A stretch of DNA of 64,000 nucleotides from Isurus oxyrinchus (taxonomy: Eukaryota): positions 620,001 to 684,000 of the forward strand of contig JANJGN010000153.1 of NCBI GenBank assembly GCA_026770705.1, read 5' to 3'. The translations under genes and the position numbers were made by a program. Every line of letters starts with the position of its first letter. Position 1 is the first letter of the stretch. The notes beneath the pieces were generated by a model. The model was not told where the DNA came from and made no database searches. It worked only from the letters and a program-made list of their open reading frames with translations. This document shows positions 13,536-48,859 of this stretch, piece by piece.

Positions 13536-13605
13536 ATGGAACAATACATAATTCTGCAGATTGCCAATGTCTTCTACCATATTCTAGCCATCCTGGGGAC
13601 ACCTG
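13536..13605 (+). pseudogene. GPR139-like GPCR copy A, coding exon 1 (N-terminus and start of TM1)
   Basis: MEQYIILQIANVFYHILAILGTP+G aligns with copy B exon 1 (ISLIQVGYFPILALVGVS+G). Phase-1 donor GT at 13606 (gtcaga, weak). Its nearest compatible exon 2 is the disrupted one at 33305. Confidence 0.7.
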
Positions 13606-13819
13606 GTCAGATGGAGAATCGGCTCGAATCGGTGTTCACGCAAGTGGTAAAATCATTTATTGATTTAAAGTTATCAGCTCCCACTATGGTGTCTGGGCGG
13701 ATAATTTGTTCTCCACCATTCAATTTGATGTAAACAGGAGTTCTTCCAAAACTATGTTGCTCCAATCATGATTTCATAAATTGCCCCTGTGCCCTCTGAG
13801 ACATTACTTCCACTGCTTG

Positions 13820-14135
13820 GGTAATCGAAAATACGGGGGCAAAGCCTCAGAAATGGAGCCAATAATTTAGACCTGAAATGTGGATGAATATCTTCACTCA
13901 AAAGCAAGTAAGCCTTTAGATTTATCTAGCCCAGATTGCTGTGCAAGCTCCATCCTTGAACACATTTAAGTCAGGAATAGAGCGATTTTTGTTCTCTCGG
14001 GGTAAAAAAAAGGATATGGGGATTGGGGGTGGGGGTGGGAATTGGTTTTGAGGCCAAAGATCAGCCATGATCAGATTGATTGATGGAGCAGGCTCGATTG
14101 GCTGTATAGTCTACTCTTGATCCTTTTAGTTGTTT
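13820..14135 (+). mobile_element. CR1 LINE 3' fragment
   Basis: tttagacctgaaatg...tcttcactca, agatcagccatgatc, gatggagcaggctcga, ctactcttg: a typical CR1 3' end. Confidence 0.7.
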
Positions 14136-14439
14136 ACTTGCTTTCTTAGTTAAAATGCATTGTTTATGAGTGCAGAGGCGGCTGCCAATTAAGATTGTCA
14201 CCTTCCTTTCATGTGCTTCCACGAGCTCACCCTAAAACAGTGAATCTCCCGGACACAAAACCATCCAAAATATCAATTCTGTTTTTGGCAGACTTCCGCG
14301 TCCATCAATGATCCATTTCACAAAGATTGGTGACTCAGGTTTCAAAGTGCCACTCCCTAAGCCCTGAATTCCTCTGAGTAAACTGTTGTGTGTGTCTCCT
14401 TAACTTCTCAAATTATGTTGATTACTTGCCTCAGGATTC

Positions 14440-14750
14440 CTTGCCTCTAACAGGGCTACAAGAGCATGTCAGAGGCTGGGAATCCTGTGTTTAGGAGCTC
14501 ACATTATGACTTCCTAAAGCCTCCACACTAATTACAAGGTACATCGTGTCATCGAATACGTTCAAAATTCCTGAATGTGTGCAGCTCCCACAACAACGAA
14601 GAAGCTAAAGATAACAAACGGCATAGTAATCCAATCGATTGGCAGTCCTTCCACTAGCAGTCCCTTCATCCACCTCTTCCAAACAGTGGCACCAGTCTGC
14701 AACACCTAAAAGTTGCACTGTAGGATCTTATCACGGCTCCTTAGACAGTA
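14440..14750 (+). mobile_element. LINE fragment (same family as 27380-31110)
   Basis: ggctacaagagcatgtcagaggctgggaatcctg matches the antisense of ~27880-27912 (ATRAxQxLGxL). Confidence 0.6.
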
Positions 14751-15820
14751 TATAATTTGAATGGACTCTATTTGTTGCAGTGTGCTGTTCAACTGGTTTC
14801 TATTCTCTAAAGTGTGCTGCTAAATATACCCTAATTGCTATGGTGTGTTGTTTGATTATACTCTCTTCTCTGTATTATGCTGTTTGAATAGACTCCATTT
14901 GCTGTCACGTGTCGTTTGAGCAGACCCTATTTGCTATAGTGCGTTGTTTAAATATACTCATTTTTTTTTTCAAATTGTGCTATTTTAATTGACTCTATTC
15001 CCTGTGGTGTGTTGTTTGTATGGATTCTATTTTAAATCGTGTGTGGTTTAAATAGACATCACTTGTCATATGTTCTTGTTTATGTAGTTTCATTGCTGCA
15101 GTGTGCTGATATTTTGACCCTAATTACTATAGTGTGCTCTTTAGGCAGGCTTTACTGGCTGTAATGGTGCTCTATGTATTGATTATATTTGCTAAAATGT
15201 GCAGCTTTTACAGACTAATTATTTACATTCTGCTGCTGTATAGGCTCAATTTGTAATAGTGCACTGTTCAAATATCCACTATTTCCTATAGTAGTTTGAA
15301 TAGACTGCATTTGCTCTGGTATTCTGTTCAAAGTGACTATGTTTGTCATCGTGTGATTTTTAATTGGACTACTTTTGCTGAACTGTCTTCTTCATATAGA
15401 CCCTATATTCAGTAGTGGATTGAATGAGCTCTATTGGCTAGAGTTTCTTGTTCAACAAGAATATATGTGCTGCAGTGACTTGGTTAAGTATACACAACAT
15501 GTCTTTTATCATTTTGTAATTACATTGTATTTTTTGTCACTGTTGAAACAAAAGATAGTTGTCATTGTTGCCATACAAGATGATGGTGCTATAGTGCACT
15601 GTTTATATTGACCCTTTTTTGCCAGAGTGCCCTGCTGAATGGTTTGTTTTCTCCAATGCGTTGGGTGAAAACTGAAATCTCCTTCGTCATTGGTTAAATA
15701 AAGCTTTATTTGCAATGGTGCTCTGTTTAGGGAGGTTCTTGTTTCGCGGTGTTACTCTTTGTACATAGACTTTGGTTGCTCTAGTGGTTCTTCATAAATA
15801 GTCTGCATTGCAGTGCGCTG
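14750..15820. repeat. Degenerate minisatellite, ~32-bp unit, roughly 30 copies
   Basis: Unit approx. tgtgctgtttaaatagactctatttgctatag; tgtgct/tgtgtt recurs at 14781, 14813 and 14844. Confidence 0.8.
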
Positions 15821-16099
15821 ATGAATAACTTCTCAAATACCAGCTGTTAAGCTGATAAGCACTTATTAGACAACATAAGTTCTGCCAGGACCTGTGCAGC
15901 TAGATACAGACAAAAAGCTTCTGGTCAAGGACCTGCCTTCCAAATTGGAGAACAAAAGACAGTAAAAGGGGGGAGGGGGAGAAAGAAAACAAGGGATGAA
16001 CTGTGATTGGGCAGATGACAGGAGAGGTCACATAACATAAATCATCCTTAGCAAAGGGAAGGGAGCAGTTCGAGTTATCAAGTTTTTAACTTGGGATTT

Positions 16100-16460
16100 C
16101 AGAGAAATGGCCATCGCTTGGCAAGGGCAGTAATTCTTGTCCATCTTTAAATTTCCTAGAACTGAAGGGGTTACCAAGCCATTTCACAGGGAAGCAAATG
16201 ATCAACTCCATTGCTGTGCCTCTGGAGTCACATGTAGGCCAGACCAGGTAACTTGAGCAGATTTCCTTTCCTAAAGGACATAAGAGAAACAGTTGGGTTT
16301 TTACGACACTCAATGACAGCTTAATGTTCCTTATTCCTGAGGCTCGCGTTCTGAATTTAAATTTCACCAAACGCTGGGGTAGGATTTGAACCCAGTTTGA
16401 AAGTGGATTAGCCTGTGTTAATAGAGCAGTAAGGCTATGATTTTTCCACCGCCTCCGCAC
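16100..16460 (-). mobile_element. Shark SINE
   Basis: ctggagtcacatgtaggccagaccaggtaa...gatttcctttcctaaaggacat...ggatttgaacccag. Confidence 0.75.
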
Positions 16461-17004
16461 AGCAAGGAAGAGAAGAAGGTAATTCTGTGCTGTAAGGGTG
16501 TGAAGAGGAGAATCATTATCATCAGTTTCTGCAAGTGACATCATGACAAACAAGGTGAAGCCAGGCAGAGGTAAAAATGATAGACCCAAAATGGTAGATT
16601 GAGTTTACATTCTGAAACAGGTAAAATTGAGGTTGAACACAGAAGTTCATAAAGTATCTACTGTAACAATGAAGTGCTGTCCCAAATTGAGGTCAAAGCC
16701 TCACTGGAACAATTCTCCAATCTATATATGGGAGTGTCAGTGAGCGAGCAAAGCAGGGAAGTAAAACTGCCTGAAACCACAACTCCAAGTCATGCTTGCA
16801 GAGTGGATGTGTGCCATAAAATTGTCGCCGGATCTGCCATTGTTTCCCCACTGCAGGGAATGCCATATTTTCGTCATGAACACAGTTTTCTAATTTGAAA
16901 GAATTACAGCTAAATCTCTACATAACCTGCTGCAGTGCACATGTGATTTTTGCATTGGTCAGTAACAATGTCATACAAACATTATTTTTTCATAGGCTCT
17001 TTCA

Positions 17005-17380
17005 CTGCAGGTGGGTTTTGCAGACAAGGGCAGCGCTTGGTGCGAATCCCTAATTGCACTTGAACTGAGTTGGCTTGCCAGGTCATTTCAGAGGGCAACA
17101 AAGAGTCAAGGACATTTTTTTGCGTCTGGAGTCACATGTCGGCGAGACCAGGTAATGATGCCAGATTCAAGATCAAGAAGGAGTGTAAAAAAACCATGTG
17201 GGTTTTTGTGAGATTTCCTTGATGGTGTCCACAACTGAGATTAGCATCCGAATTCCAGATTATTTCCTGAATTCAAATTCTGCCACGTTCTACTCGAACC
17301 TATGTCCCCAGAACAATAGTCTGGGTCTCTGGCTTCCCAGCCCAGTGACAACAATTATACCACCATCCCCCGCTCCGCCC
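17005..17380 (-). mobile_element. Shark SINE
   Basis: ccctaattgcacttgaactgagt...atttcagagggca...tctggagtcacatgt...tcgaacctatgtccccagaac. Confidence 0.75.
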
Positions 17381-18199
17381 ACTTGCACACACAATGTAAA
17401 ATTCTGAGCAGCAGTTGCCCACTGTGGCCTTTGCAGCCTCTCCACCATGGAATAAAGTCATGGATGATCTGCTTGCAAACTCAATCCCACATTCCCCTCT
17501 ACACCGATAGCCTTTCACCCCTTGTTAATGAGGAAAATATCTACGTCGGCTGTAAATATATTCAAATACACTGCTTCGAAAGCCTTTTCAGTAAGCTGGC
17601 TCCAAAGCCTCACAAGTCTCTGAGAGACAAAATGTCTCCTTATTGCTGTCCGAAAAGGAAACAGGAAACTGCAAAGAATGTAGATAGGTTAAGAGAGTGG
17701 ACAAGGATCCGGAAAATGGAGTTTAATGTGGGAAACAGTGAATGATTAATTTTCTGCAGACTACAGGTATAAAGTGGAAAGGCACGAAGCGGAATGCTGA
17801 CTTGAAGAGGCAGTTGAGGCACGATGGATTGAATAGCCTCCTCCTGCATGGTAATAATTGTATGCAACTGTAATTCTTTGCTGGTTGCCGCATTTGTTCA
17901 ATGGAACATGTGTGGTGATAGAGCCTGCAGAATATTCAGTGTGTGAAAACAGAAATACCAAGATTTGTGTTGAATAGAACAGTTGCAAAGTGTGATGTCA
18001 GTCATGGCTGCTCCAGCAATTTATGCCAGAAACAGAAAATATCAAGTGGAAAAAAGTGGAGCTGGCCATTTTGAAAAATGTAGGCACAATGGCTATTCGT
18101 AGGCCAAGCTTTGCAGGAAATTAACAGCCATGTGCATCGGGATGTTAAAGGAGATGGATAAGGAGCAGGAAGGAGACAGAGGCCATAGCATCTACACAG

Positions 18200-19530
18200 G
18201 ATTTGCTGGGATTAAAGCCAATACCTGGAATTGACAGAAGCACAATTCTACAGGAGAAAGAGGCTCTCAGGTAGATTGCCAGTGTTATCTAATGCATGAT
18301 TGCATGTCCAAAACCTTACCATTACCCATGTACAGGGGTGGCATTAATTTGAACTGCTCTAATTCCTCGTCTCACCACCCATCCATTAGCAAAAAGCTCT
18401 TTTCGATTTTTGAGTTCCCCCATTTAATTCGTGGCGTATTTTCTCCAAACCTACAGTGTTGCAGTGATCCAATCCTTGACTAGAAATCACACAACCTACT
18501 TGGGGTAAGGGTGGAAAAAAGGGTTATTCATTTTAGACAGACACACAATGTGTCAAGGGGCCCCACAACATTCAAAGCCGACCATTCCGAACAACTACAC
18601 CCCATCATCTTTGGATTCATAAATTAAAAGAGTGAAAAGAGATATAATAGCTACAAGGAAAAGACCACATGTACATTAAGAATTATTGCATTAAAATACC
18701 TCAGGCTCCAGAATCCGGAATACCATTCTATAGCACTTTTCAGAGGTTCGCTGTGTGGAACCGATATGCGGCGAAAATCTGCTCCAGTATTACAGACTTA
18801 CATGGTGAGTGAAAGCATTTAGAGATGAATCAGTCTTCTTAGTAAAACCTGGTACAGACGTACAGAAAGTCCAGCAGAAAACAGTGCAGATCAGGACAAG
18901 GAGATTTGAACCTAGACAGATAGCTGTTTCATCTGGTCCTTCTGATGGATGATGGTAAACAGATGTAGGCTGCAAGCCTGGAGTCCTGTTGTACTTCCGG
19001 CATTGAACTGCGACTGAAGGCGGATGCCTGAGAAATGTATAGGAACAGCATTTGGAACAAATCAATTTTCAGTGTCGTGGCAGGGTGGACTCAGAAAAAA
19101 ACTATTCAGCTAACGAGGCAGCGTGTCGAAACCAATTTTCTTTTGAACAGATAACTTTAGAATCATTAGCACAACATTCAAATGGTCCCAATGATGCTAA
19201 GCATTTGTGGTATCGTGGCTGGGATGTTTACACAATGAAAGGCGTGTAATACTTTGAGGAATTTGAGGAGATAAGTTGTGCCAATTATGAAACTGATCAG
19301 AAACCTCCAGAACAACCAGCATATGGTCAGCTGCCGTTGCTTAATCCATCGAGCCATTTGTGAAAAACGGTATGTAAACAAGAGAGTAAGCAGTCCATAT
19401 TTCTCTTTAAGAGCATTGTCCCTCGTTGTGCTTTCTTAGTGAGGCAAAAACATCAACACCGCTCCTCTGACATGCCCTCTCCATTACTTTGCCATGTGAG
19501 ACAGAACTTGACAGGCCATCTCTACCTGAA
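18200..19530 (+). mobile_element. Probable Academ-type DNA transposase fossil, interrupted by a Harbinger element and possibly resuming at ~24600-24790
   Basis: Motifs across frames: RSGQGDLNL (cf. RAxRxGDWxLH), CIGT..HLEQIN...GGL....NEAA.RNQF (cf. IGADHALEQINRxMKVxGGLxGITxNxxARxxFFL), SIVPR (cf. SVVPRSLF) and KTSTPLL. Many stops. Confidence 0.5.
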
Positions 19531-19534
19531 CAAT

Positions 19535-22500
19535 TGAACGGAAATTTCGAAGTCCGGGGACGGCGGGTGTGATGGGGGCTTGCTCGGGTATTATGACGTG
19601 TATCTGCTTCACGGTGGCAGGAATCCAGGTTGCAAAATCCCACACAGCCCGCAGAAGTCTGACTGCATTTCCAACCATGGGTCGGTGGGGAGCCAATTGT
19701 ATTACACCAGCGTATTATTAAAAGGCCATTCCACCAGGATCTTGGTCCCCGCATCATCTGGACACATCGGCGGAAAGCATGCGACGTGTTTAACATCATC
19801 ACGCAGGCGACCTGCACTTGTCGCCCTTTACTTTGGGAGAACTAAGGTGAGTGAGCAGCAGCGTTCTTCACAGCTTCCCCGTTGTTTACAGGGATCTTGG
19901 CGCTGATGTAGGGTTGGGCTGTGTTGTGCAAGTGACTCCAGTCCCGGGAGGTGGGGGCTGCGTGGTCAGTGTGACTGTGAGCAATTGCTAAATAGCCGTG
20001 CAGGCTCCTGCCGCAGGTTCATGGGTGGAACGACTGGCCAGTTTTGGGGGCAACTGCTTGGGGGTGGGGGCGCCGGTGTGTGGCGTAGGCTGAATATGCC
20101 ATGGGGCATTTTCTATGCATCCTCAGACGGGGATGCTGAGGAGTTGGGAGGTTCACGTGCTGACCTGGTGTTGCACCACACGCACAGGCAATCGAGGTTT
20201 GAGATAGTGTAAGCAAGAGAAGTGACCAAACATTAGGGGGCGCCTATATAAACTGACCATGGCTCTGCAACTGACACAGATCAGGCGTAGACGCAATGAA
20301 ATGATTGGGTTCGGTCTCCTTGATGTCCCGCTCATGCAAGCCATACAGAGGCATCAAAGGACCATCAAGCATTCCATACCTCACAGCCCCACTCCCTACC
20401 TGCCCGGTGAAAACTTCGAGTCCGCCACCATCTTATTGCAACGTGGAGAAGTTGGGCTGCAATCATTGTCCAACGTCCTCGTCAACATTGTGCATGTAGC
20501 CGTCACTGCTGGGGCGCTCGCAACCACTTGTAATTTCGGCATGCTGCTTGAACCTGTGCCCTCCACCCATGTCACGGGCTGACAAGTCAGCCATAAAGCA
20601 CACTCATCTCTGGCCATCCGAGAGGTGACCAGTTCTCTCTACAGGAAGCTTTAAGGGGAGGTCACACAGGACCAGGAAAGGTGGAAAGAACCGCTATGAT
20701 ATCTATGTCTCTCTCGTACATGCTGCAGGAGGACCATGTCATTATCATAGATCCTGGTGTCCTAGTTTAATATCTGATAGTCCACAGAGACTGTTGAAGA
20801 TGGTGAATTGAGTGATTGAGGCGCCTGGCCACAAAGGTTCAAGAGAAGCAATCCCATGAAGAAGGAAGAACAGGATTTCTCACACATGCTGTCCAGTAGT
20901 GACAGCGAGCCCTGGCTGTTCGATGCCCTGCAGCGCCCATAGGCTGCCTGCTATTCCTGCAGGTTACTGAGACCCAGTGTCAACGGTGGCTGCACATATC
21001 TAAGGACCTGTTAGCTCACATCTGCCATCTACTGCACGCCAGGCGCCATGAGCAAGGAGGGCAGCCACTGCCACGATCTGTAAAAGTGATCGTGGCAAAG
21101 AAATTGTTTCCCTGTGGCACCTGTTAGCGCTGCACATCTGACCTCTGTGCGATTTCACATCCCCCATCCACAAATATTCCCCCGAAATCATCTATGCAAA
21201 CTTCTGCAAGAGAAACAATTTTGTGCATTTTTCCAGGAACCAGGGCAGCGAGATGCAAGCGCCAATGAATTTGCCCTGATCTCGGGCTTCCAACAGGAAC
21301 ATGGTACAATTCAATGCACGCATGTGTCCCTCATGTCTCTGTCGCTACATGCAATGGACGTCATCAACCACAAGGGTTTCCAATCACCGAATGTGAAGCT
21401 GTTACCAAAAGCAAGCCTGCAAGGTTGCAATTGACTTTCATGAAGTGCACACAATACGTAAAACCTGAATCACTCGTAGTTCCCTGCGGTCTTCCAGCGT
21501 CTACATACGCTGCAGGGTTGGATCCATGGGGACAGGAGCTACCTAAAGAGTGGTGCTTTATGACACAGAGGCTGATTCGAGAGCCTGCAGCAGAGTGATG
21601 CTACAATGCATCTCATGCAGCAGCTCGCGTATTGGTGGAGCAAACCATTCAGCTGCTGAAGATTCAGTCCCTGGTTTCTGGATCTGTCCGATGGAGCGCT
21701 GCAATGCACTGGGCAGAGCGTGTCACGTGTCATTTTTGTTTTTTGTGCCCTTAACAAGGTGGCCTTACAACGGGGTGAGGAGGCGATGGAGGAGTTGCCC
21801 ATCTCCTTCAATGAGGAAGGCACTGACGGGGATGAGATGAGGAGATCCTCGGTGTTGATGACGACAGGGAAAAGGCTATTGCATTGTCTGGATTAGGCAG
21901 GCACACTCGGCAGGTTCTCATTGTTTCCAGTTTTGTCGAGGATGATGACGACATGCACTGAAGGCCATGTGGCTGTGAGCATTGTGGTCGTCAGTCTCAT
22001 CCTGCAGGAACCTGCCGAGGCCCTCCCTGAGTCTGCAAAACCTGTATCTCTGCAGGGTCAGCCACCCAGGCTTGGTCTAGGTTAAAATTTGATTCTTCTA
22101 TCTGAGAGGGTGAGCAACATCAGGATGGTTAAATTGTCTCAAAATCAGAACTTCCCTCACCCCGCCGTTCGCATTGATCCGACCTTGTGGCGGTGTTCCG
22201 ATGGATGGATTTCATGGTTGTAGGAGTGCAGCTGCCATACCCTCGGCTCAACCATCGGCCACCCACGAAACTTTCCTGTTCCTGGTCTTTTACTCTTCTT
22301 TCCCTGCTGCACTTTATCTCGTACAACAGCTCAGATGATCTTGTAGCTGCTGCCTCTGTTCACTATAGTGATGACCAGTGACACGTGGCTGATTATAGTC
22401 GGTATCCCATCCGAAAGCATTGCCGAGGTCATGGTCACCAGGGACTCATACATACAAAGTGTACGAATTCTGAACTCCTCAGGGTACCGAGTCCGATGGA

Positions 22501-24600
22501 CTCATAGCAGCTGCTGTGACTCCAAATAGGAACCTCAAATTGGGCCTCCAGAGTCGCTGTCTTACTGCTGTGTTAAGTATCTGTGTGACTGTCCACCCGC
22601 ACTCCAGGGGGACTGCCTTTGACGCCTTCTCCTGCACACGGTGCCATGCTGGTCCCACAGTGCTTAGTTCCTAGGCCCACACATGTAGCCGCTGGAGTGT
22701 CAGTCTCTGTGCTGGTGCCTGGTGAGCGAGGTATTGATGATGGTGCATCCTCGGACACATCAAGCTCCTCCTTGTATCCTAGTCCTTAATGCTTTCAGAT
22801 GGGGTATAGGGGTAGGGTTTCGGAGGGTGGGTTTAGGGAGATAAAAACAAGGCAGCCATGAGATGAGGTGGTGCAGAGTTTCCTCTTTCTCAGTAAACTT
22901 CTTCCAATGTTATCCTGGCACTCTGTTGCTCCCATTCACTGCCTCCCATGTTAAACGCAGTCATACCTTGGACTTAGGCTTTTCCATTTTCTACCTGAGC
23001 TACCATTTCCAAATCAAAGCGACTCCACCACACCAGCTCCCCTCCCCGCCCACCACGGGCTGCTAACGTCACCACCTGCACGTCTGCATCGACAGCACGG
23101 CCATTTGAAACTGGGAAGGGTGACCCACCGACACCAACACTGCCTGTGAATTGCATTCTGGTCGATTCTCCTGGAGAGAGGGGGTACCAACTCCCAGTCA
23201 GCCCCAGCTCTCCGGTGTTTTTCGCTCCTAAAATGACAAGAAGTAAAGGGTTACATGGTGTCTCATGGAGTTTGGAGGTATCTCACAGAGGAATACAGTT
23301 AATTATTCTCCTGGCCATCCGTTTACTGTCACATTGTTCGCTTCACCTTAGTCATAGGCACGTGATGCTCCTCTGGTGCTGCAGAGCACCATTAACACTG
23401 TACCCAACCGAGGCCTGACATGATGCACTCAACAATGCCAGTCATCATGCCAAGTAGGAACATGTCACAACTTGGCGGATTGAAGAAAGTCGCTGAAGCA
23501 CTTTCAATACACCCTCCAATCCCTCTGGTGGTCACCACTGGGTCTGATTACCTCCACAATATTCACTCAGGCTCCTTCTGTGGTGATCGGAGGGAACCTT
23601 AACCATTCAGGTAACAGGGTGACCCGCCTCTGTCTCATTCTCTCAGGAGGATGTCCAGGCCGTGACCTATGCAGCAGGAAGCTAGTGCTTCCCGGAACTC
23701 CTGGCTATTTCCTTGGCCTGTCTCAATGTGATAAGGGTTTTGTAGGTAAATCAGTCAAGGTGTGTGGTTTCCCATTCTGCCCTCCATCATTAACCTGATT
23801 GCAGGTAATTTTAGTGAGGTGTTGGGGGGTGGGGGCACGAGGGAGCTACCGCTGTGTGTGTGTCATATCTGGAAAAGGTTAGCGTCGCACAGGCTGGGTG
23901 ACCACAGCGTTGCATGGCAAGTGACAAGATGTCAAAAGCCAGGTCACAAATGCAGTTATTGCCCGAAGCCTTTGAGCAGTTTTCCTCATTTAGGTTTGTG
24001 TTCATTCTGGGGGTTAAGCATTGCGTGTGTTCAGTGTACTGCCTCACCTGAAGGGGAAAACAATCATTTTGGGCCTGTGGGTAAGGGAGGGTCCGAGTTT
24101 TGAATGAATAGTTGAGCACTTGACATGATCTCTTGCGTTCCTTGGCAGGGTGTGTTGGCAGAAACATAGAACATGTTTAGAGGTTGATGCCTTTTAGGGT
24201 TGAGCATTAATAGATTGTTACAGCAGTGTGCACAGAGGGAAAAGCAAATTGGCAGCACTGCATTTGAAAAGCAGGCACAGCAATGACTATGAGGACACGA
24301 AGGGAGATTTTCCTAATTTCGCAGCTCTAGCAGGGCAATCATTTCCCAATCATCAGTGATATGATCAGTAACTCCTGACAGTGCAATGGTCAGAATTCTC
24401 CTCCAGTGGCCTCTCAGAGTCACATTCAGACAGAAACTGTTTGCAGGGACAGGACAGGAAGAACCCAACTCCTCAACCGACCTTTTCAGGGTAGAAACCA
24501 GACCCCCTACACAGGCGGGAGTCAAGGAAACACATGTTTTTTTTTCCTGTCAACGTGCCAGGAATTGGGTCAGGATGGGCTGCGGATTTTGGATGCCAAT
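19535..24600 (+). mobile_element. PIF/Harbinger DNA transposon (decayed, possibly composite); HARBI1-like transposase remnant at ~21020-21960
   Basis: INHKGFQSPNVKL (cf. NRKGFHSLNVQL), QGWIHGDRSY (cf. GWLLGDKGY), YNASHAAARVLVEQTIQLLK...LDLSDGALQ, acidic tail. Antisense Myb/SANT-gene-like sequence at ~22400-23100; GC-rich TIR-like ends. Confidence 0.75.
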
Positions 24601-27378: not shown

Positions 27379-27384
27379 GCTCTT

Positions 27385-31110: not shown

Positions 31111-31217
31111 CGTGTCTTGGTTTTTCATCGTGCGTGTGTGTGATTGCTTAGGTCAGCATTTTTCGATGTGTTTGCTTCTATGCCACTCTGTGCCAGGGTA
31201 TGTGATTGTGTGAGTGA

Positions 31218-31575: not shown

Positions 31576-31612
<37 letters not shown>

Positions 31613-31930
31613 CTATGTATGTGTGTGTGTATATGAGTGTGTGTCTTTTTCTGGAGGCGGGCATGTGTGNNNNNNNNNNNNNNNNNNNNNNNNNNNNNNN
31701 NNNNNNNNNNNNNNNNNNNNNNNNNNNNNNNNNNNNNNNNNNNNNNNNNNNNNNNNNNNNNNNNNNNNNNNNNNNNNNNNNNNNNNNNNNNNNNNNNNNN
31801 NNNNNNNNNNNNNNNTGTGTGTGTATGTGCCTGCATGTGTTTGTTCCAATGTTTGCGTAGACATGTGTATTTACCTGTGTGTATGTTTATTTATATGGGT
31901 GTGCATGTGTGTGCGTGTGTGTCTGTATGC
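31110..31930. repeat. (TG)n tract containing an assembly gap
   Basis: Directly visible. Confidence 0.95.
31670..31815. other. Assembly gap (146 N)
   Basis: Run of n flanked by TG repeats. Confidence 1.
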
Positions 31931-33304
31931 ATATCAGTCCAATGCTAGGAGAGGAGTCCAATTTCTTGTCTCTCCTCTGGAAGGGTGCGGACACTACAAG
32001 AGTCAGGTTTCTGTGCACCGGGACGTGCTTCGTGGTCAAATGTGAAACCGGCTTTCCCTTTTCACTCCTCTCTCACTCATCATCCCTTCCCCCACCCACT
32101 CTCCTTTCTCCCCTGTCATTGTCACATCATATCCCTCTGGAAGATGGATCGAGGAGGAGTTCACATCTTGCTTGTAACGGGAATGTTAATGTATGGAGAC
32201 ATGAAATCCAACTCGATGGTCACAGGTCAGCGAGTAAGCGTATCTTTGTAAAAGTAACCTTTACAACCGGCATTGTGCAACAGATATCTTTTGGAAACAT
32301 TGAATAACTGACAACATATTGAATATATGGAAGTCAGTTATTCTAACTAATGAAGAAGAAACTTAGGGAAAATATCCCCGTCCAAGAAAAAGAAGAACAA
32401 TGTTTGGAATCAGCTCAGGCAATTACAAGAGGCTAAAACGTTCTACCTTTTGATAAATTTCTTCATAACCACAATTTAGACTAATAGCCAGAATTTCGCA
32501 ACCTCCATTTGTCTTCAAAAAAGGAGAAAATCAAGTACCAGCTTAAGGAAGGTGATGAAGCGGCATGTTTCTCTCCCATGCTTCTGATACACTAAGTGTA
32601 TGCTACTCCTCTAGAGTCCCTCTTTTAACGTGTGTGTTTGAGTGTGTGTGTTTGTGCGTTTGTGTCTTTGAGGAATGACATCTTGCTACAGTTCCTACTC
32701 TTGTAAGCAATACATTTTAATCATTTCCTTTAATTTTTTAACTTTACAAGAAAAACTACTTAGTCACTTTTCTTAAAAACTGCCACACTGGAATGTTTAA
32801 ACACTCCTTCCCAGAAATGCATCCTGTTCTGGTTAGCAGAGAAATGGGGAAAACATCCCGATCACTTCCCTTTCCTTAACACATCCATCACCTCAGGCTC
32901 TGCCCAATCATACGTGTTCCTCAGTTCGCCCCTCGCCCCTGGGCCGCCCTATTATTGCCTGGCTCCTCTGTTAGGTTTGGGTTTCAAAGTTACGTTTGAA
33001 TCACTCCTGACTTTTCCGATCTCCAACTAATTCCCTTATTATCCCCTGGGCCCAACATTCATCCTTTGTACCCTCATCACCTCTACCGCCCGCGATAATC
33101 CTGCATCCACTTCCTCCACCCCTTCAGCTTTTGTTATTTTTCTCGGCTTCCTAAACTCGATCACAAACCTTCCCATTTGTTATTTTAGGTTCATTTTTCA
33201 CAATATATTACAGGCTGCAATAACATACAGGAACTAATCAATTAAACGAGTTGCTTTGACTAAGCCTGATGTATAATCTAATTGTTTATTTCCCGTCCAG
33301 GCAG

Positions 33305-35784: not shown

Positions 35785-38700
35785 GGCTGGAATTCCCCCA
35801 CAATTGCACTAAACGCGCTACCGTGCTGGTGAAAAGGAGCCCTGCCCACCGACAGAAATGGCGGGTTTTCATGCCTTAACTTCCCAAGACCACCTTAATC
35901 TTTATGCATAATAAACACATTATTTCCAACTTGGCAGAACTTTGGCTCAACGTCAATGGGCTGTAACATCACCCTGGCCGTCGCCTTTACAATGCAGCCC
36001 TCAGCAAAACGCTCATCGCCACCAGCTCACCATTTCTGTTTGGAAAACAAGGCCAACAAAGGAAAAATGCCTGCAGCCTCTCTCTTCAATGATGGATCCC
36101 TCCAGATACTGCTGGAGGGCCGCCGGGATGTGCCCTACCATCCCGAGGATGTACAGCACTGTCACAAACCCAGACACTGCAGCGATCGCTGCGATGGTCA
36201 GAGCAAACGCCCGGCTGAGTATGAATGATCTCCCCGTCCCTCCAGTGTAAGTCACTCTTTCACACACACTCACAAACCCATTACTCAAACACAGGGCCCT
36301 CACTCACGTCCAATGCAAGGGACCGCAACATTGACTCTTTCACACAGGCCGCCATTGTCTTCATCCCGCACATTGGGACACTCAAAACCCACACATGCCA
36401 GGCGTACTTGTCATCTGGCCCGGCAGGAATCATGATACACTCTCACATCTCTTTCCATGATGGACAAATTGGATCACAACAGGAGGGCTACATCGCAGAC
36501 AGGAACGACTAGCTGGACATCAACGTTCTGACTGAATTGGAAAACAGAGTCATTCAGCTGGACAGTTATAACTGGGACCACTCTTGTGCTAACGATGAGG
36601 TCAGCAATGATATACCAAGTTAAGATCCAGCAGTGCCACATTCATTAGCAAACACTTATGTGTGTGATGTGTCCTCTATCATAAGCCACTCTTATGCACT
36701 GATTATTTCGCCTTGCTTTCCCAGGTATACCTGCCAAACAGCTGAGGGATTGCATGACCCAATGCCCCCGTCAAGCTCCAATGAAAAGTCTGAGGAGGAT
36801 TCTGAAGGGACCCTGCCTAAAGTTCCGTTAGAGCGCTCTCCCACGCCCTCTACCAGCGTAGAAACACACACCTGCGTGGGACGCAGGTTTAGAGAAGCCT
36901 CAGGATCATAATCTGGTGATCATTTGCCCCCTCCACAGCAGGTGGAGGCACGGATTTCCCAGGTCTCCGCATACGAAGGAGTTCTGTGAGCCAGAAAGTT
37001 GCTGAATACGAGTCAAGTGTTGAGCACCTGCACTTGGTCATCTCTCAGAAGCTGGAGCTGCAAAGGTAAGCCAGCCAACATCAGAAAGTGATGTCAGCTG
37101 CACTTCTCAAATTGTAATGCATGATGGAGGAGACCATCCATCTTCAGGCTCATGGGGGAGTGCCGGCATTGCAGCATACCGTGTCCAACACTGGCATTAT
37201 GTCGTTTACCATGGAGACCATGGACAGGGCTTCTACTCATGCAATGCTGCATGGTCTTAACTCCTTTGCTGCTGCCATAGTTGGTGTCCAGCAGACTGTA
37301 CATAAGATGGGTCCTCGGATGTATGATCTCAATCCAGCTGCCCCTTCCACTCACTGCGTCAGCAAGGGGTTCTCGGGCACACATAGGGAGGAAGGTCAGT
37401 ATGTGCACGCTCCGGGGCCATCCAACCAAATGACTCAGCGAGTGACAGGCCCATGTGCCTTCCTTCTTCCTGTAGACTATACAGATCCAGCTTCACAGGC
37501 CGAGCAGGATGCCACTGCCCCACAGCAGGGCGATGAAAACAGACAGACGACCTGCAAATCTCGGCCTCTGTGAGGATCCAGGCCAAAGTTATCACAGCCA
37601 GAGCGTCGGAGTCAGCATGCAGCCTTTAACTCCGGGATTCTGCTCCTGCTGCTGCCTGACCAGTCGCTCCCTCCTCCATTTAAACGGTCCCTGTAGGCCA
37701 TCAGGCGTGCTGCTAGGTAACTAGGATGCATGATCCTGACGTGGTCCTCCTGCAGCACGATAGAGAGCGACACGTGGTAATCATCGCTGGTCCTTTAACA
37801 AAAACCCATAATGCTTCCCAGAAAGCGCTGGTCAGCCCTCGGAATTCCAGAGAGCATTGCTCTGCCTGGGTGCCTTGTCAACATGCAGCAAAGGGGACGC
37901 TGTTACAAACAATGATGCTGAACATGCAAGGAGCTGACAGCGCCTCCAGCAGTGACTGCTACATGACCAGTGTTGGCAAAGAGGTTACACAACGTGTGAA
38001 GTCCAACTGCAGTGCAGTGCAATGAAGTGCTGGTGGATTCGAAGCCAGTGCCTGTTTGTGTAGGGGTCGGGGGGTGGGGGGGGGGGGGGGGGGGGGAAGC
38101 ATAAGACATGGAGCAGCTAATGGCACTTTGTTGCCTCTTGGATATTTAAAGGCGCGGGGAGGCAAGGAATCTGAACCAAATCATATCACACTCGCTGCAC
38201 CTGATCTGCCTCATGTGCAGATACATGGTAAAATTGTGCATGTGTCTTCCATGGGTGGCCATTTCCCTCACTTATCCTGCCCTCCACCTCTATTGACTTT
38301 AACTGAGATGCAGCACATTTACACCCCTGCCACCACCAGGGCAGCACGTTATAGCACCACCCCGCACCCTCCGCAGGCGCCTCCTTGGCTGGCAGCAAAT
38401 GCCCGAGACAGCAACCTCCACCCATCACCAGTCACCTCCGAGACTGGCCAGCACTTGCCCACAGACACTCACAACCCTCACCCTTCGCCTGAAGTACCGG
38501 GCATCAATTTACTCCGACCTCGGCGCCATTGAGTGGAGATACTGCTGCTTAATCACCGCAGATCACCCAAAGTGAAGCTGCACAGTGCACGTCACCTGTG
38601 TACTGCTGTGAAACACATCGTTATGCTGTACTGATGACATGGACAGGCGATACGGTGGATTCCATACACCTGAAGGGATGCCCTTTAAATTATGTACTAA

Positions 38701-38870: not shown

Positions 38871-39089
38871 AAAATAAGTCACTTCGTGAGAGGAGAGGCT
38901 GCAGTTGGAGCTTCGGATCAAATCACCATCTAAGGAATTGATTTTATCTTGGGCTCTGAGATGGCTGGTTCCAATTAGCCTCACCGAGACTGTTATAACA
39001 CCCACAGGAACTGAAAGTAGCTGAGGCGCGATTTGAGTAATATCCTGCGTTGTGTCTTGTCTGCTTCATGGCTAGATCTCTGGCCAACA

Positions 39090-42000: not shown

Positions 42001-43120
42001 ACAGTGTAACAACTGATACTTCTTCAAGTGCAAATATGGAGGAAGACGAACACCATAATTAAAATGGACTTGTATAGAATATGATTCTTATGGAAAATAC
42101 TTGCATGTTTTTTGTAAGAACATAATTACAGCTATTGTAAAAGCTATAAGATAAGATAGATTTAGTAATGAGAGGAGATGCTAACGGGAAATGAAAATGT
42201 CTCTGAAAGCTACCTTTTCATTTCTTATCCTTTTGCGGGGTAAATGATGGGAACTCGATATTATTTTAGGCAAGCTACAATTGTGTTTGTAATGTGAAGC
42301 CTGGATTTATTTTCACTTTGGATTTTGGCGACATTCAGCCGGCCAGCCTGGGGCACTGTTTAAATGTATACATTTTAATGACTGCATTACGAATCTTGAA
42401 ATGAAGAGATTGGCTACTAAAGGTTTTGGTGATTTAGTGAAGTCACATCTAAAACAGGAAGTAGGAAATAAAACTGTGTTGTTGACTCGCAACTTGTGAT
42501 CAGGGGGAGCTGCACAGATACATGAAGACAAGGAGCCTATGACCTTGTAGTTTCAGTTGTATCAAATTGCCAATGAGTGAAGACTTGACGAAAAGGCCTC
42601 AGTTTGTCTGCAACTGGGCATGATGCCAGATTCTTAAGGAACTCGTGGATAATCCTCTAACACTAAAGGAGAGGTGAATTTAGATTGAGTGTTCTGGATA
42701 TCTAAAGGGATATACCAATTGTGCAATTGCTTCTTGTGAATGTTCAGGAGACCACTGGAAGATCTACTTCTTTACCACTGAACAGACGTTATCCTTGGTC
42801 CAAAGATAATGTTGCCTGGCCGCTGGGGTCCTGGGTTAATAAGGGCATTAGTAGGATGAAAGGGGCAGCGTGAGTTAATGCCACTTATTTCGTGGTCTCT
42901 GTAATGAAAACTTACCAAGCGTTTGGTTGCCTGGTGTAATATGATCATGATTAATTACATTTTTTTTGTGAATCTTGCAAAGTCAGATTAGGCTCCTGTG
43001 AACCTCTTTCAGTAAGGAACCCACGCTCCCAAAATAAATGATTTTTTTAAAATAGGTCATCAATCCAGGTTCCATTCTGCTTTGGAACTCTGCTTTTATA
43101 AACAGCGTGGAACACATAAA
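39090..43120 (+). mobile_element. Gmr1-type Gypsy LTR retrotransposon remnant (integrase, RT, RNase H; probable 3' LTR ~42245-43120)
   Basis: Integrase zinc finger/core (PMA.H...RKTQA; IVGKP; PIPVCTEPFSTSLID; RNAQKESTANTAFDLIF...GDPVKLI) at 39200-40300. RT (TWSSP, PKPDGSQ*LCVVY, DSYFIPGLENCIENIG, FMPFGMKNA) at 40850-41500. RNase H PFKLVSDAS at ~41670. A small antisense CR1 tail is inserted at ~40545-40680. Confidence 0.85.
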
Positions 43121-43366
43121 ACCTTCCTGTCCTCGGATATCACTCCCAGGTGCCTTTACATGTCATGGTCAGTCAAACCTCTATTCGCAGCCTTCCATCC
43201 CTTAGCGACCCACATAAATCCGATCCACGCCAAGTAAGTGTCCTACTATGTTGTGAGACAAAAATTGTTGGAATGCAAGGCGTTAACTGAACCAGTTTGT
43301 TCAGTCCCTGTAATTAACTTCAATCTCCCCGGATCCTAATTGTGTCACAGGAGGGTTTCACAATGC

Positions 43367-43374
43367 TATTTATA
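43367..43374 (+). promoter_or_regulatory. Candidate TATA box of GPCR copy B
   Basis: TATTTATA followed by cgggg, ~140 bp upstream of ATG 43509. Confidence 0.35.
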
Positions 43375-43508
43375 CGGGGCTCATTTCAAAGTGCTGTCCC
43401 CTAATGTCAGGGGGGCAGTCGCATTGAGCAGTCGCAAGAATCAACGACTCCTGAGAGGGGGAGAGAAAACATCAGAGCCTGAGAATAATAGATTGGAACG
43501 TGACAACA

Positions 43509-43683
43509 ATGAATCAGAAACTTAGAACAAAATCTTGGAATTTCACAAAAATGGACAGAAGTTTATCCTCCGGGCTTTACTACCTTTCTCAAGATCGGAT
43601 ATCATTAGCTGTTAGGATCGAGGGAGTAATTTCGTTAATCCAAGTTGGTTACTTCCCCATCCTGGCTCTTGTTGGTGTCAGCG
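43509..43683 (+). CDS. GPR139-like GPCR copy B, coding exon 1
   Basis: ATG 43509 (alternative ATG 43551); MNQKLRTKSWNFTKMDRSL...IQVGYFPILALVGVS+G; N-glycosylation sequon NFT; strong phase-1 donor G|gtaaga at 43684, compatible with the phase of exon 2. Confidence 0.85.
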
Positions 43684-44479
43684 GTAAGAACCTATATGCA
43701 ACAATCTGTTCTTTAAACCAGATTGGCTGTATTACTGTTACTGTCTCTTATATTTCAGGAAGATGGAAGTCATTTTCTACTGTTCCTGTTTTAATGATCG
43801 TTCCATATCCAGTCGCTCCACCCGCCTACCGCACCACTATCTAAGCCTGAACCATAGTGTCTTCGACCTCCATGCTCCATTTTGCCCTGAACTGATTTGT
43901 GAGCCCACACCTTTTCTATCCTTAAGCCTATCTTCTACCAGCTCTTTAGCCTCTCACCCACTATCCTCGCTGCATCAACACATCACCTGAATGATCCCTC
44001 AGCTGTGCATTTGTCCAAGCCAGACTCGGCTGTTAAAATGTTAATCTGGCCAGACAATTGCTGCTACAAACGTTCTTAAAACATACCCCATATAAAACTC
44101 TGATCTTTGTAAACTTGCCCATGCCAAATCTCATTCCACCATTATCCCTGTGCTCAAGGGCCAATATTGCTGCCAGGTCTTTCAGTCCGTCAATTTCAAA
44201 ATTCCCAATCGTGTGATTTGATCACAATTTAATCTCGCTTCTCCAATCAATCCCATGTCCAGAAACTCACACATGGTGTCCCGTGTTGTCCGGGTGTTTT
44301 CAGCATGTTTGATGCATGTCTTTGAAACACTGGCTGTACCGTCCACCAAAAAGCTGTGTTAATCACTCTCAGCTAAATATTTGTTAAAAAACACGAGGCA
44401 CCCTTTCCAATTTAATTGAAACGGGCCAGACATCTGACTGTCAGCTGAACGGAATTTGACTGACTACTGTTATTTCAAA

Positions 44480-44618
44480 ACAAAAACAGAATTACCTGGA
44501 AAAACTCAGCAGGTCTGGCAGCATCGGCGGAGAAGAAAAGAGTTGACATTTCAGGTCCTCATGACCCTTCGACAGAACTTTTTGGATTTCCAGCATCTGC
44601 AGTTGTTTTGTTTTTATC
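44480..44618. mobile_element. Short Penelope-derived insertion with inverted structure and 14-bp direct flanking repeat
   Basis: Minus-strand Penelope tail 44480-44578 plus plus-strand tail 44579-44618; actgttatttcaaa at 44466-44479 and 44619-44632. Confidence 0.85.
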
Positions 44619-46901
44619 ACTGTTATTTCAAAGTCCATTGAGGTGCTTTAGATGGTCTTCATTGTGCTGTGCTGTGAAGGGCTGCGTAAATTGAGAGAGG
44701 ATAGAGGATTTATAGGCCCAACTTTGGAAGAGGTTTTGGGGATGTAGTTACAGTGCACCTGGACCTGTACCATGACGAGCGAAATGAGCGGAGTGAATAG
44801 GGAGGGGACCGCCTGTTAACATTTGTTTTTGGGGGGGAGAGGTGTTGCACTGCTCTAAGCACCCCTGGATTGTCAGGAACACTTTACAAACGTACACCTA
44901 AAACATGTTCATAGACGGATATAACTCTGACAAAACAATAAGGTGTTACAGACCCGTGTCACCTCCTTCAACAGGACCTAGGGCCGCACACCAGGGTGCG
45001 GGAGCTGCTGTCTTTGGACACGGTGTTCACATGATCATTGAAACTGCTATGGATTCAGAACAGTCCATGCAGGAGAATAGCTTGTGTTATATTAATTACC
45101 TCCCAGTATTTTGTCTAGCTATGTATTCATTAGCTGACAGAGAACATCTCTGTTGGGTGCCACGTTTGTACATTTGCTCCCTTAACAGGGAGAAGCCGAC
45201 TGATCGGTTCCATGGCCTTCCAGGGCAGAGGGATTCACGATGGCGTACATAATTCTGCCGTGTCCCCATTAGAATGGACAGATTTAAAGGCTCAGAAGGA
45301 ATTCTGACTGAATTCACGTCCATTTGATGTATATTTATGGACAGTACATCATGTTGGTGAACATCCAATATCCTGGCGAGAGCCACAATACCTTCATTAT
45401 GAAGCAGTCGGACGTTTCCAGCATCTCCGGAGCTCCATAGGGAAGCACACAGTGGCTTTTCGTAGATGAAGGCTGCCCCGTAGGTACATGGATCAATAGA
45501 ATGCAACTTCGTCATTCCCTACCTCCAACAAAGCAGGTGAACATTACACCTCAATACCAAGAGCAATGGAGTCGCACAGGCCATTGTGGATCAGCCCGCC
45601 ACTGTGGGAAAGAAACGCTTCTCATTCCTGAGCCATTGGGATTGAACTCTCCCTTACACGCTGGAGCGGGTGGTCATGTTCATAGTGTTCTGCTGCATCC
45701 TTCATATAATCACCATCATAAGGACACAGGCATTGTCACCAGGAATCCGGAGTACACTGCAGGAGAAGAGGAGATAGTGGTAAGATATATTCTGGATGCT
45801 TTCGCCTTTGACAGGTTGTCTAGATGTGCCACTAAGAATCCAGTTTGCACATAACTTCATTTTCTGAAGTTGTACACAACATAAATTTTAGTGTTTGGAG
45901 AATGGAAATCCAACACCAAGATCGAAGGACAGGGAGACTTTTGCTCATAATAGAAACACTACAAAATAACATTTTTAAGAGACATTTTTGAAGATTTCAG
46001 GCATTAAAAGAGGCTGATAGGCTGTACATGTTGGTACATATCGTCAACACAGAGGCTCCACCACATTGTAGACTAAAAGCCAGATATTTAAAAACTCCAT
46101 TTGTCTTCAATAACCGAGGAATGAAGACCTCAGTCCTGCAATGTTTACAACCAGCACATAAAGCATATTAAGGAATGAGCTGTTCCTGTTCTACACTCGT
46201 AATAATTTAAGTATGTGGAGCATTTCTGCAAATTATTATTTTATGTGTGAGGGTGTATGAGTGTTTGTGGTGTACATGATCATTATTACTTGCATTTCGT
46301 ATTTTGTAAGAAACGGTCATTTATCATTTAATTTGAAATGATAATTCACAAGAAAGCTGTCTTCGAAATTCGTAAAATAACATCCTTGGAGAGAGGAAAC
46401 ATTCCATCACATAACTGCAGAGCCTTCCTGTCAGGAGATATGTTGAGCAAAATAATAAATTACCCCATTTCACTTATTTGCCTGAACGTAATCATCACCT
46501 CTGGCTGCTCTCACTCAAACACGTCTCCCCTATCACTCCTGAGTTCCACCATCACCCATGAGTACCACCCGTAATGGGCACGCTCGCCCGACACTCCATG
46601 CGCTGTTATCACCGCTACGCACACCGATTATCCCCCGATTACTCCTTTCCTCCTTTGTCTCGCAAATATTCCCGCTCTCCCGCAAACTCCCATCTCCACC
46701 TTATTCCCACCTCCTTATTTTAACCTTTCAATGTATCCTGCCTTCCACGATATCACAGACATTTTTTATACTATGTTTCTGGACGATTCATTTCATTACA
46801 CTGGAGGATGCTGTAACACATCTCCATCGCATCTCAATTAAACTGGCAACTTTGGTACCAGAGTGATATAGCGTTTTATTGTTTATTACCTTTCCTTGCA
46901 G

Positions 46902-47779
46902 TGAACCTGGTCACGATTGTGATACTCAGGCGCCGGAGCTGTGGCCTCTCCATTTGTGTTACCCGTTACCTGGAGGCCATGGCAGTGGCTGATCTACTGG
47001 TCATTATCCTGGACCTGATACTGAGGCATATTCCAATTGTGTTTGATAAGTATTTTTCTTTCCTGCGATCAATCCCAGTGTGTAATATCCATGCTGTCCT
47101 GCTTTATGCAGCCACTGACTGTTCTGTGTGGTTCACTGTCACTTTTACCATGGATCGATTTGTGGCCATTTGTTGCCCGAAGCTGAAAACGAAATATTGC
47201 AGTGAGAAAACAGCAGGTGTGATTCTGGGAACCATCATTGCACTGAGCAGTTCAAAGAACATTTTCTGGTATTTTTTGTTCACAGGTCAGTACTGGATGG
47301 TAAACTTCCCCTCGTTTTGTGGTTACAGAAAGGAGGTTCTGTTCAATCCTGCCTGGGTAACAATCGAGTTCACCCATCACATTCTAACACCGTGTGTCCC
47401 ATTTTTGCTGATCCTGCTCATCAATATTTTGACCATAGAGTATATTTTAGTGACCAGCAGGGCCCGCATGAGACTCCGGGCTCACAGGAGTGGGCAAAGC
47501 CCCAAAGACCCAGAGGTGGAGAATCGAAAGAAATCGATCATGTTACTCTTTTATATTTCAGCCAATTTCATCATTTTATGGGGAATGCTAATGTTGTTTT
47601 CCATATGGATCCGGATGTCTGCTTTAGGCTATAATTCACTGTATCTAGATTTTTTTGTTCTGGAATTGGGCTTCATGCTGCAGCTCCTTAGTTGCTGCAC
47701 AAACACTTGGACGTATGCTCTGACACAGACTAGGTTCAGGGAGCAGTTGTGGAAAATGTTGAACTATCCTTTCACTTAA
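46902..47779 (+). CDS. GPR139-like class A GPCR copy B, coding exon 2 (TM1 end to TM7); spliced product 350 aa
   Basis: Polypyrimidine acceptor tttccttgcag ending at 46901; uninterrupted frame VNLVTIVIL..CGLSICVTRYLEAMAVADLL, TM3 SVWFTVTFTMDRFVAIC, ECL1/ECL2 cysteines (PVCN, SFCG), TM5 P, DPEVENRKKSI, TM7 LSCCTNTWTY, helix 8 FREQL. Confidence 0.93.
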
Positions 47780-48859
47780 ATTTTTTACTTTGTTCAATGA
47801 TTAGAAGAGTTGAATATCTGACATTTCTAGAACATTATTTCACATTTTCAGCAGGGTATATGGGTCTGTCATTGGGCTGAAAGAATCAATGCGAACTTCA
47901 TGAATTTTAACATTTAACTTAACGTTTTAAGTGAATGGGGCTGGGAGATGGGGTGGGGATATTTGGGAGGTGGAAGTGGGTTTACTATCTGGAAGTATTA
48001 AATTCTAGGAGTTTCATCAATTCTCTCATTGAATTTAGCATTTCCAGCTGGCACGGGGGAGTCGGTGTAGGATGGGGGTGTCCAGTGCTTTCAAGGTGTC
48101 TTTATCAATGGAACATAATGACTCAGGGCTTCCAATATTTTATCAGCTCATTGCTCAGTTTGAAAGGAGGAAAATTTCTCTCACTGCGGGAGCAAAGAAA
48201 CCATGATGTTCTGGAATTAAAGCATTTTCTCTTATTTACAGCGGCGGGGGTGGGAAGATGGTGGTGGGAGGGTGGGGGTGTGCGGGGGCGAGAGGAGGCA
48301 CTGAATGTTCACCACTGACCTACTTCTCCCATCCCATTGGACGATTCCAAAGTCCATCGTCCCCATCCCTCACACGGGAAGGGCAGGAAACACATCTCAA
48401 GCCATTTCCACACTTCCATTGCCCACGAAACGTGGCCGTTATACTTCTCTCTCGCACTGAATGAACAGAAAACTAAGCCACTGACGCCTACTTCCAAAAT
48501 CGCCGGTGGAACTGTCCGCTGCTTCTCAGTGATTGGACATGAATCCTCCTTCCAACACATGATTGGAAGCCGAAATGGAATGTCAGAGTGCAACGTGGTG
48601 CGCTCTTGTCAGAGGAGATGTGGTCACAGCGTAGATTTAGGGTAACCAACAACGCAGTAAGATAACAAAGTGAAAGTGAGGTAACAGTGGAAATCAGTGC
48701 ATGGGCAAAACGCCAGCTCCCACTGAATGCTAGTGTTTATAACGGAAGTGGGTATCAATGCAGCACAGAAAGAGGGTGGCGTTGCAGGGGATTTGGGGTG
48801 TGTGTGTTGGGCAAGATGGCACAACTGGACCTCGATCTCCCTAAAAGAGATGCAGATTG

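Follow-up and report, generated by a model that had tools for sequence, protein, structure and literature searches.

The question raised by this stretch of the Isurus oxyrinchus genome (assembly GCA_026770705.1, contig JANJGN010000153.1, positions 620,001-684,000 of the forward strand; these 64,000 nt are called the window below) is whether its intact G-protein coupled receptor (GPCR) gene, copy B, and the disabled copy A that precedes it form an isolated pair of GPR139-like genes or belong to something larger. An earlier note on the same DNA had described a tandem pair under birth-and-death evolution, and had proposed a lineage-expanded family of sensory receptors. Sequence comparisons indicate that a large family of class A GPCRs from sharks forms a tandem cluster, of which the window covers a portion, and that copy B is a member of this expanded family, which is unnamed and "GPR139-like". 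It appears very probable that the family works as a receptor repertoire evolving by birth and death. The complete statement, which adds small charged ligands and external chemosensation to the repertoire, is given a probability of about 0.4.

Copy B is an intact two-exon gene (43509-47779, + strand) encoding a protein of 350 aa. It is composed of the following parts:

43509..43683, + strand: exon 1 of copy B, 175 nt, from the ATG at 43509 through 58 codons plus 1 nt to the phase-1 GT donor at 43684
43684..46901, + strand: intron of copy B, 3,218 nt, inside transmembrane helix 1 (TM1), with the AG acceptor at 46900-46901
46902..47779, + strand: exon 2 of copy B, intact, from the rest of TM1 to helix 8, with the stop codon TAA

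Exon 1 encodes a long-type N-terminus and the first half of TM1, and this gene model confirms the earlier reading of an intact copy of 350 aa with a phase-1 intron in TM1. Database models of relatives often change their N-terminus at the alignment column of this exon junction. Pfam recognizes a single family in copy B, 7tm_1 (46.1 bits for a cut-off of 30.5). The AlphaFold model of exon 2 has a predicted local distance difference test value (pLDDT) of 89.1, and the 50 matches listed by the fold search are all class A GPCRs (TM-score 0.59-0.74). Copy B is a class A (rhodopsin-type) GPCR. The fold singles out no nearest receptor, GPR139 having rank 36 among the 50 matches listed. The activation motifs D2.50, the two cysteines (C3.25 and that of the second extracellular loop, ECL2), DRF, P5.50, F6.44, W6.48, N7.49 and Y7.53 are present, as is a D-x-E-x-x-x-R motif in the third intracellular loop (ICL3). 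P6.50 and P7.50 are replaced by Met and Thr, respectively; both prolines are absent in most family members too, and human GPR139 likewise lacks P7.50. In the region 43455-43560, the N-terminus of copy B is similar to units of 14 residues, bearing N-glycosylation sequons, that are repeated in its relatives P0056 and P0090; one further unit of this kind, lacking a start codon of its own, precedes the ATG in the same frame.

The homologue search retained 1138 of 1702 candidates at E<=0.001, not all of which need be family members, and the best 120 of these 1138 were listed. Two of them lack names and were set aside; the remaining 118 belong to ten shark species, have 48-71% identity and nearly all carry the automatic label "probable GPR139". 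Among the 120 matches listed, 51 come from the horn shark, 25 from the sevengill shark and 15 from the whale shark; these species counts are lower bounds and concern one subfamily. The 51 horn shark rows correspond to 46 groups at 95% exon-2 identity (three odd sevengill models, P0002, P0003 and P0039, were left out of this grouping and of the pocket-site counts). In a library of 50% clusters, 107 matches reach E<=1e-30; their identity falls as low as about 36%, and many are fragmentary. On a tree of the listed rows, those of the horn shark require 4 label changes against 38.8 after shuffling, and the sevengill rows 2 against 23.0. In a wider tree (LG+G4, no mixture model, hence prone to long-branch pull, and built without true GPR139 and GPR142), copy B is sister to the catshark protein P0004 (support 100/91) within a six-row subfamily clade (100/100). 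Six orders of sharks have retained one subfamily. The ICL3 motif is found in 115/118 and 38/41 family rows. The earlier proposal of an expanded cartilaginous-fish family therefore stands as regards a great expansion in sharks, whereas its scope needs correcting because the named matches come from sharks only and a probable low-copy counterpart exists in amphibians and sturgeon; no rays or chimaeras occur among the listed rows, no separate search having been made there. By protein language model, the neighbours of copy B include clusters with the Srw Pfam domain on 12-74% of their members and FMRFamide-receptor-like clusters, which is a lead only. The srw receptors originate from the FMRFamide-type group.

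Human GPR139 is the sole solved match of copy B exon 2 at E<=0.001 (28.1 bits, E 1.1e-5). It is reported to be a Gq-coupled brain receptor activated by Trp and Phe (PMC6367278, PMC5430874), and GPR139 and GPR142 are described as sharing their origin with the protostome receptors for FMRFamide, MIP, proctolin and myosuppressin (PMC8514136). Its ligand site is reported to comprise F109, H187, W241 and N271 (PMC5430874) and E108, R244, W166 and D84 (PMC12775434). These eight residues were located in copy B by visual inspection of the alignment, with the helix anchors as guides: two are identical (H187, W241), F109 is conservatively replaced by Tyr, and five are replaced (E108 by Leu, R244 by Leu, N271 by Phe, W166 by Leu and D84 by Arg). 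Copy B resembles GPR139 (PDB 7VUG, 9M42) by the class A fold, the lack of proline at 7.50, the aromatic residue at 3.33, the His at the position of H187 and W6.48. It differs from it by the replacement of P6.50 by Met, and the shark family differs from GPR139 and GPR142 by a longer ICL3 with the D-x-E-x-x-x-R motif and by its copy number, which runs to dozens in a genome where theirs is one.

Two low-copy lineages, also labelled "probable GPR139", were found in addition. Lineage 4 comprises amphibian and sturgeon proteins (P0247 from Pleurodeles, P0391-P0412, of which P0391 is from Xenopus tropicalis, and P0418 from Acipenser), with one protein per species among the matches listed. It groups with the shark family with a support of 95/96, and the ICL3 motif is present in 20/21 of its rows and in 0/86 rows of lineage 3; an alternative grouping, with lineage 3, narrowly escapes formal rejection (approximately unbiased test, AU, p=0.053). 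Lineage 4 is probably a low-copy co-orthologue of the shark family, from which it differs by just 26-29% identity to copy B and by a strongly conserved pocket (0.32x). It retains F3.33, W6.48, a basic residue at 6.51 and N7.39, an arrangement that resembles the GPR139 ligand site. Lineage 3 (P0244, P0272-P0389) is found in sharks, coelacanth, bony fish, amphibians, turtles and squamates; mammals and birds are absent among the 120 matches listed, of which 34 unnamed or poorly labelled ones were dropped to leave 86 rows. It constitutes a clade apart (100/99), which includes shark orthologues of its own and is not expanded. With the shark family it shares the wider group, a short N-terminus and the TM1 pattern, at 28% identity to copy B. 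It lacks W6.48 and P6.50 and keeps R6.51. Two of its database models are labelled as TMEM183A isoforms, which suggests that the gene adjoins TMEM183A. Either lineage may correspond to the entries "Orphan 139-like" or "NMOGPR", which Table 1 of the review PMC5207463 takes from Yun et al. 2015 and classes as "unclear", but with which no match could be made. Several related genes are found in amphioxus (P0271, P0390, P0396, P0414-P0420, P0423), and the neighbouring locus numbers of some hint at a small separate tandem expansion. The lamprey protein P0427 was rejected as a GPR139, being a relative of the prolactin-releasing-peptide receptor.

The evidence for diversification of the ligand side comes from 291 exon-2 positions, classed by generic numbering (not by contacts in the model), for which tree-aware site rates were calculated relative to the mean of each set. 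These rates are evidence at the protein level, not codon-level evidence of selection. In the deep family set, where 34 motif-intact representatives of 41 were used and 7 dropped, the pocket evolves at 1.76, the other outer TM positions at 0.97 (p=0.006) and the inner TM positions at 0.53 (p=1e-8). The pocket is on the contrary the slowest class in lineage 3 (35 of 86 rows; 0.54 against 0.79 for the other outer TM positions, p=0.007) and in lineage 4 (21 rows; 0.32 against 1.00, p=8e-5), where the intracellular loops are fast; a simpler divergence measure gave the same pattern. The expanded family has therefore reversed the pattern of its low-copy relatives. Across the family sets the inner TM rate is 0.43-0.53x. 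In the subfamily of copy B, the inner pocket is fixed and highly polar (D2.57, R2.61, H3.28, D3.37, K4.57, E5.39, H5.42, E7.36), the first four of these residues being unchanged in 51/51 listed horn shark copies, and wide variation is seen at the rim (5.43, 6.58, 7.32, 7.35) and in the outer loops. To judge from these rates, the pattern is that of a ligand-diversified receptor repertoire.

The turnover of copies can be seen in the window itself. At least five family copies or relics are present; they occupy both strands and represent more than a single subfamily, so that the "pair" of the earlier note has to be abandoned; intact exon-2 copies amount to one of at least five. The birth-and-death evolution that it had proposed is evident from the pseudogenes, the relics and the species-specific clusters of copies. 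The disabled copy A has the following parts:

33305..~34150, + strand: exon 2 of copy A, a pseudogene of the same subfamily as copy B, with an in-frame AG at 33303-33304
32415..33304, + strand: intron remnant of copy A, homologous to the end of the copy B intron
31670..31815, no strand: run of 146 N (assembly gap) within a tract of CA/GT repeats, 1.5 kb before exon 2 of copy A

Exon 2 of copy A has 71.5% identity with that of copy B over 849 aligned nt. Its frame is shifted by 6 indels, and a further deletion of 9 nt leaves the frame unchanged; of the 278 codon pairs that align with copy B without gaps, 3 show an in-frame stop in copy A, and its DRF motif has become GGF. The last ~900 nt of the copy B intron match the sequence upstream of this exon (62.9% over 828 aligned nt), up to the vicinity of the repeat tract that contains the gap. 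Since the homology runs ~900 nt into the intron, copies A and B arose by genomic duplication and not by retroposition. A long-type exon 1 of copy A was searched for between 27.0 and 32.5 kb and not found; it may lie in the assembly gap or have been deleted. The four loop motifs of the earlier note (VFDKYFSFLRS, LFKEQFYFWNS, FTGQYWMVNFP and ITDPYWLMNGP) are all where expected, and its contrast between conserved TM cores and divergent loops holds: 106/173 TM positions (61%) are identical between the two copies against 18/46 (39%) in the extracellular loops (Fisher p=0.012) and 41/86 in all loops (p=0.046).

The mechanism that we favour can be outlined as follows. A family related to GPR139 and GPR142, and distinct from them, would turn over by birth and death, and its many paralogues would keep a common cytoplasmic, G-protein-facing half, while their ligand pockets and outer loops vary. 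The set as a whole would detect a wide range of small charged ligands; the kinship with GPR139 and the pocket chemistry point above all to amino acids and amino-acid derivatives, or to short peptides. Signalling through Gq and Ca2+ is predicted by analogy with GPR139. The receptors would face outwards, on olfactory, oral, skin or gill cells, and copy B is presumably one functional member. The label "sensory" stays tentative, since the divergence pattern fits any many-ligand repertoire, including immune or gut sensing. External chemosensation is an attractive possibility because the known olfactory receptors of sharks are reported to be few (mean 43.8, range 20-62; PMC10869828).

Several observations weigh against this mechanism or limit it. 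In the horn shark members of the copy B subfamily, the pocket is not significantly faster than the other outer TM positions (0.99 against 0.87, p=0.13) and the outer loops alone are faster (2.80); recent copies may therefore be partly redundant. On the tree the copies of the whale shark and the zebra shark are interspersed (9 and 7 changes), hence not all growth is recent. The rates of the deep family set depend on positions assigned by generic numbering and on representatives whose divergence exceeds that of the controls (tree length 18.3, the controls having 6.8 and 4.2); of these representatives, P0409 and P0413 (horn shark) alone are demonstrably from sharks, and some may be faulty gene models. 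Between copies A and B, the ratio of non-synonymous to synonymous substitution rates (dN/dS) displays no excess (0.65 outside, 0.64 inside), which says little because copy A is a pseudogene. A promoter motif common to the three first exons of the window was looked for and none was found. In the available text of PMC11979771, the top-50 list for catshark "brain and olfactory epithelium" holds no GPCR genes; this absence is a weak argument because the known olfactory receptors are absent from the list too.

Four other explanations were considered. There is practically no chance that copy B is an ordinary shark orthologue of GPR139 or GPR142 accompanied by a dead duplicate, as the name "probable G-protein coupled receptor 139" borne by nearly all its relatives and the sole solved match at E<=0.001 would suggest. 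The identity as GPR139 orthologue is refuted by copy number and divergence: the score of copy B with human GPR139 (28 bits, E 1e-5) is below those of the non-orthologous lineages 3 and 4 (70.4 and 62.1 bits, obtained with full-length queries and not with exon 2 only, as for copy B), E108, R244, N271, W166 and D84 are all lost, and sharks possess dozens of paralogues each (at least 46 in the horn shark). The earlier note had suggested as much, and had named as contrary findings a total of one or two copies genome-wide or a nesting as the 1:1 GPR139 orthologue, neither of which was obtained. A largely neutral amplification, in which repeat-rich regions multiplied a small gene and most copies decay while few matter, would account for the single intact copy among at least five and for the abundance of simple repeats in the window, and tandem duplication in rays is reported to scale with genome size (bioRxiv 10.1101/2025.06.08.657570). 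It is nevertheless quite improbable in view of the four inner-pocket residues fixed in 51/51 horn shark copies, the slow inner TM positions (0.43-0.53x) and the retention of one subfamily across six shark orders.

More serious are the two explanations that accept a repertoire and place it elsewhere in the body. In an immune or barrier repertoire, leukocytes, mast-like cells or nociceptor-like neurons would sense microbial or host peptides, in the manner of the MRGPRs and formyl-peptide receptors. Birth-and-death evolution and hypervariable outer loops (2.80x in the horn shark) fit a host-parasite arms race equally well, and peptide receptors stand near the top of the fold search, with no clear best among the 50 matches listed. 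MAS1-related receptors being reported as restricted to bony vertebrates (PMC8455134), this niche would be open in sharks. The kinship of the family is however with neuronal or gut amino-acid or neuropeptide receptors and not with chemokine or formyl-peptide receptors, and the window contains no immune gene that we could find, so that we regard this explanation as possible but rather unlikely. Internal sensors would be receptors of gut, endocrine organs or brain for nutrients, osmolytes or neuropeptides, that is, an enlarged version of the role of GPR139 and GPR142. The closest solved relative is indeed the brain Trp/Phe receptor GPR139 (PMC5430874), whose residues F109, H187 and W241 map to Tyr, His and Trp in copy B, and lineage 4 keeps F3.33, W6.48, the basic residue 6.51 and N7.39. 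Internal ligands, on the other hand, seldom need dozens of pocket variants turning over between species, and the low-copy relatives have the opposite rate pattern; we consider such a role unlikely.

The family has several parallels among chemoreceptor repertoires. The OR, TAAR, V1R, V2R, T1R and T2R repertoires also combine gene clusters, pseudogenes, lineage-specific blooms and diversification on the ligand side. Copy B belongs to none of these vertebrate families: it matches only 7tm_1 in Pfam, its best solved match is GPR139, its kin are peptide and amino-acid receptors, and it has an intron in its coding sequence. Independent rhodopsin-type expansions with a chemosensory function are described for the nematode srw receptors and for the GPCRs of the Aplysia rhinophore (PMC3963977, PMC2700072). 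These expansions are invertebrate and not orthologous to the shark family, and copy B has no Srw match in Pfam. We propose tentatively that sharks possess a further, unrecognised family of vertebrate chemoreceptors, derived from a GPR139-related receptor for amino acids or peptides that remained low-copy in amphibians and sturgeon, and perhaps as large as the known olfactory repertoire or larger.

The proteins already sit in public databases under their automatic label; what would be new is that this GPCR branch, for which no repertoire under birth and death is known in vertebrates, has given rise to one. No published description of the shark expansion was found in the literature searched, which excluded most subscription papers and several shark genome papers. 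It goes unmentioned in the main texts of two papers, one on the catshark sensory genome and the other the ray tandem-duplication preprint (the supplement of the first and the supplementary tandem-cluster figure and table of the second may list the family), in the whale shark paper PMC8455134 and its 24 supplements, and in the chemoreceptor review PMC12294341. The GPR142 orthogroup of the whale shark paper was rejected as this expansion, since it contains 70 proteins in 35 taxa. The same paper speaks of a "relative paucity" of GPCRs in cartilaginous fishes, and one subfamily alone accounts for at least 46 distinct horn shark copies hidden under the label "probable GPR139". Were the family expressed in sensory tissue, it would join the short list of vertebrate chemoreceptors, would help to explain the keen chemosensation of sharks despite few classical receptor genes, and would offer a parallel to the srw and mollusc expansions; in immune tissue it would constitute a new innate receptor repertoire. 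The probable low-copy counterpart of Xenopus represents a tractable route to the ancestral ligand. The locus described here is an ordinary piece of the cluster, and the interest lies in the family.

The other members of the cluster found in the window are decayed or isolated:

9074..9471, + strand: copy C, a relic of ancient date and much decayed, corresponding to the 3' half of exon 2 (12 bits; E 4.5e-4 by nhmmer)
13536..13605, + strand: short-type family exon 1, from the ATG to the phase-1 GT at 13606, about 24 aa, with TATAAA 83 nt upstream
51714..51884, + strand: copy E, a relic with the end of TM6, ECL3, TM7 and helix 8, containing stops (27.7 bits)
54138..54434, - strand: relic of copy D exon 2, from the end of TM1 to TM3, with a frameshift and stops, phase-1 AG at 54436-54435 (22.3 bits)
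62770..62839, - strand: exon 1 of copy D, short type, open, ATG at 62839 and phase-1 GT at 62769 (37.6 bits), the third exon 1 of the window

For the relic search, the best of 6 shuffles reached 7.6 bits. Copy C consists of two pieces, ICL3-TM6 and TM7-helix 8, in two frames. The strand and the order of the two exons of copy D suggest that they pair across 8.3 kb. Collinear TM4/TM5-like pieces (- strand, 57158-56665; 6.0 and 4.1 bits) are within shuffle noise and were not counted; they are possibly a sixth relic inside the presumed copy D intron. A match of about 9 bits on the opposite strand of the copy B intron (- strand, 45995-45780) was not counted as a copy either.

The exon at 13536 had been taken by the earlier note as the first exon of copy A, whose exon 2 is indeed multiply disabled; this assignment is unsupported. 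With the phase-1 GT the exon scores 29 bits (best of 30 shuffles 8.8) against a profile of 18 short-type N-termini with a donor requirement, which includes P0409, the best match of the exon. An earlier profile weighted to the copy B subfamily gave it just 2.8 bits, inside shuffle noise. By these scores it is a real family exon 1. Copy A exon 2 belongs to the subfamily of copy B, whose N-termini, with a median of 50 aa (82 rows), exceed this short type in length. The exon is of the short type, resembles a protein of another subfamily and lies 19.7 kb away; hence it is probably not that of copy A, and is either orphaned or from a different subfamily.

Concerning the rest of the window, Rfam and tRNA scans gave no match, Pfam recognized none of its eight other long open reading frames, and no flanking gene usable for GPR139 synteny was found in it. 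Simple repeats are abundant, and two minisatellites are present, one at 1024-1735 (49-bp unit, 14.7 copies) and one at 51326-51692 (unit of roughly 50 bp, about 6 copies), the latter ending just before the copy E relic. The GC-richer segment 2282-3826 has broken reading frames with a retrotransposon-like look, perhaps of the Penelope-like type; a Pfam search of it gave no match. Finally, the inverted pair 20414-20803 / 37676-38044, with 64% identity over about 390 nt, probably represents copies of an interspersed repeat.

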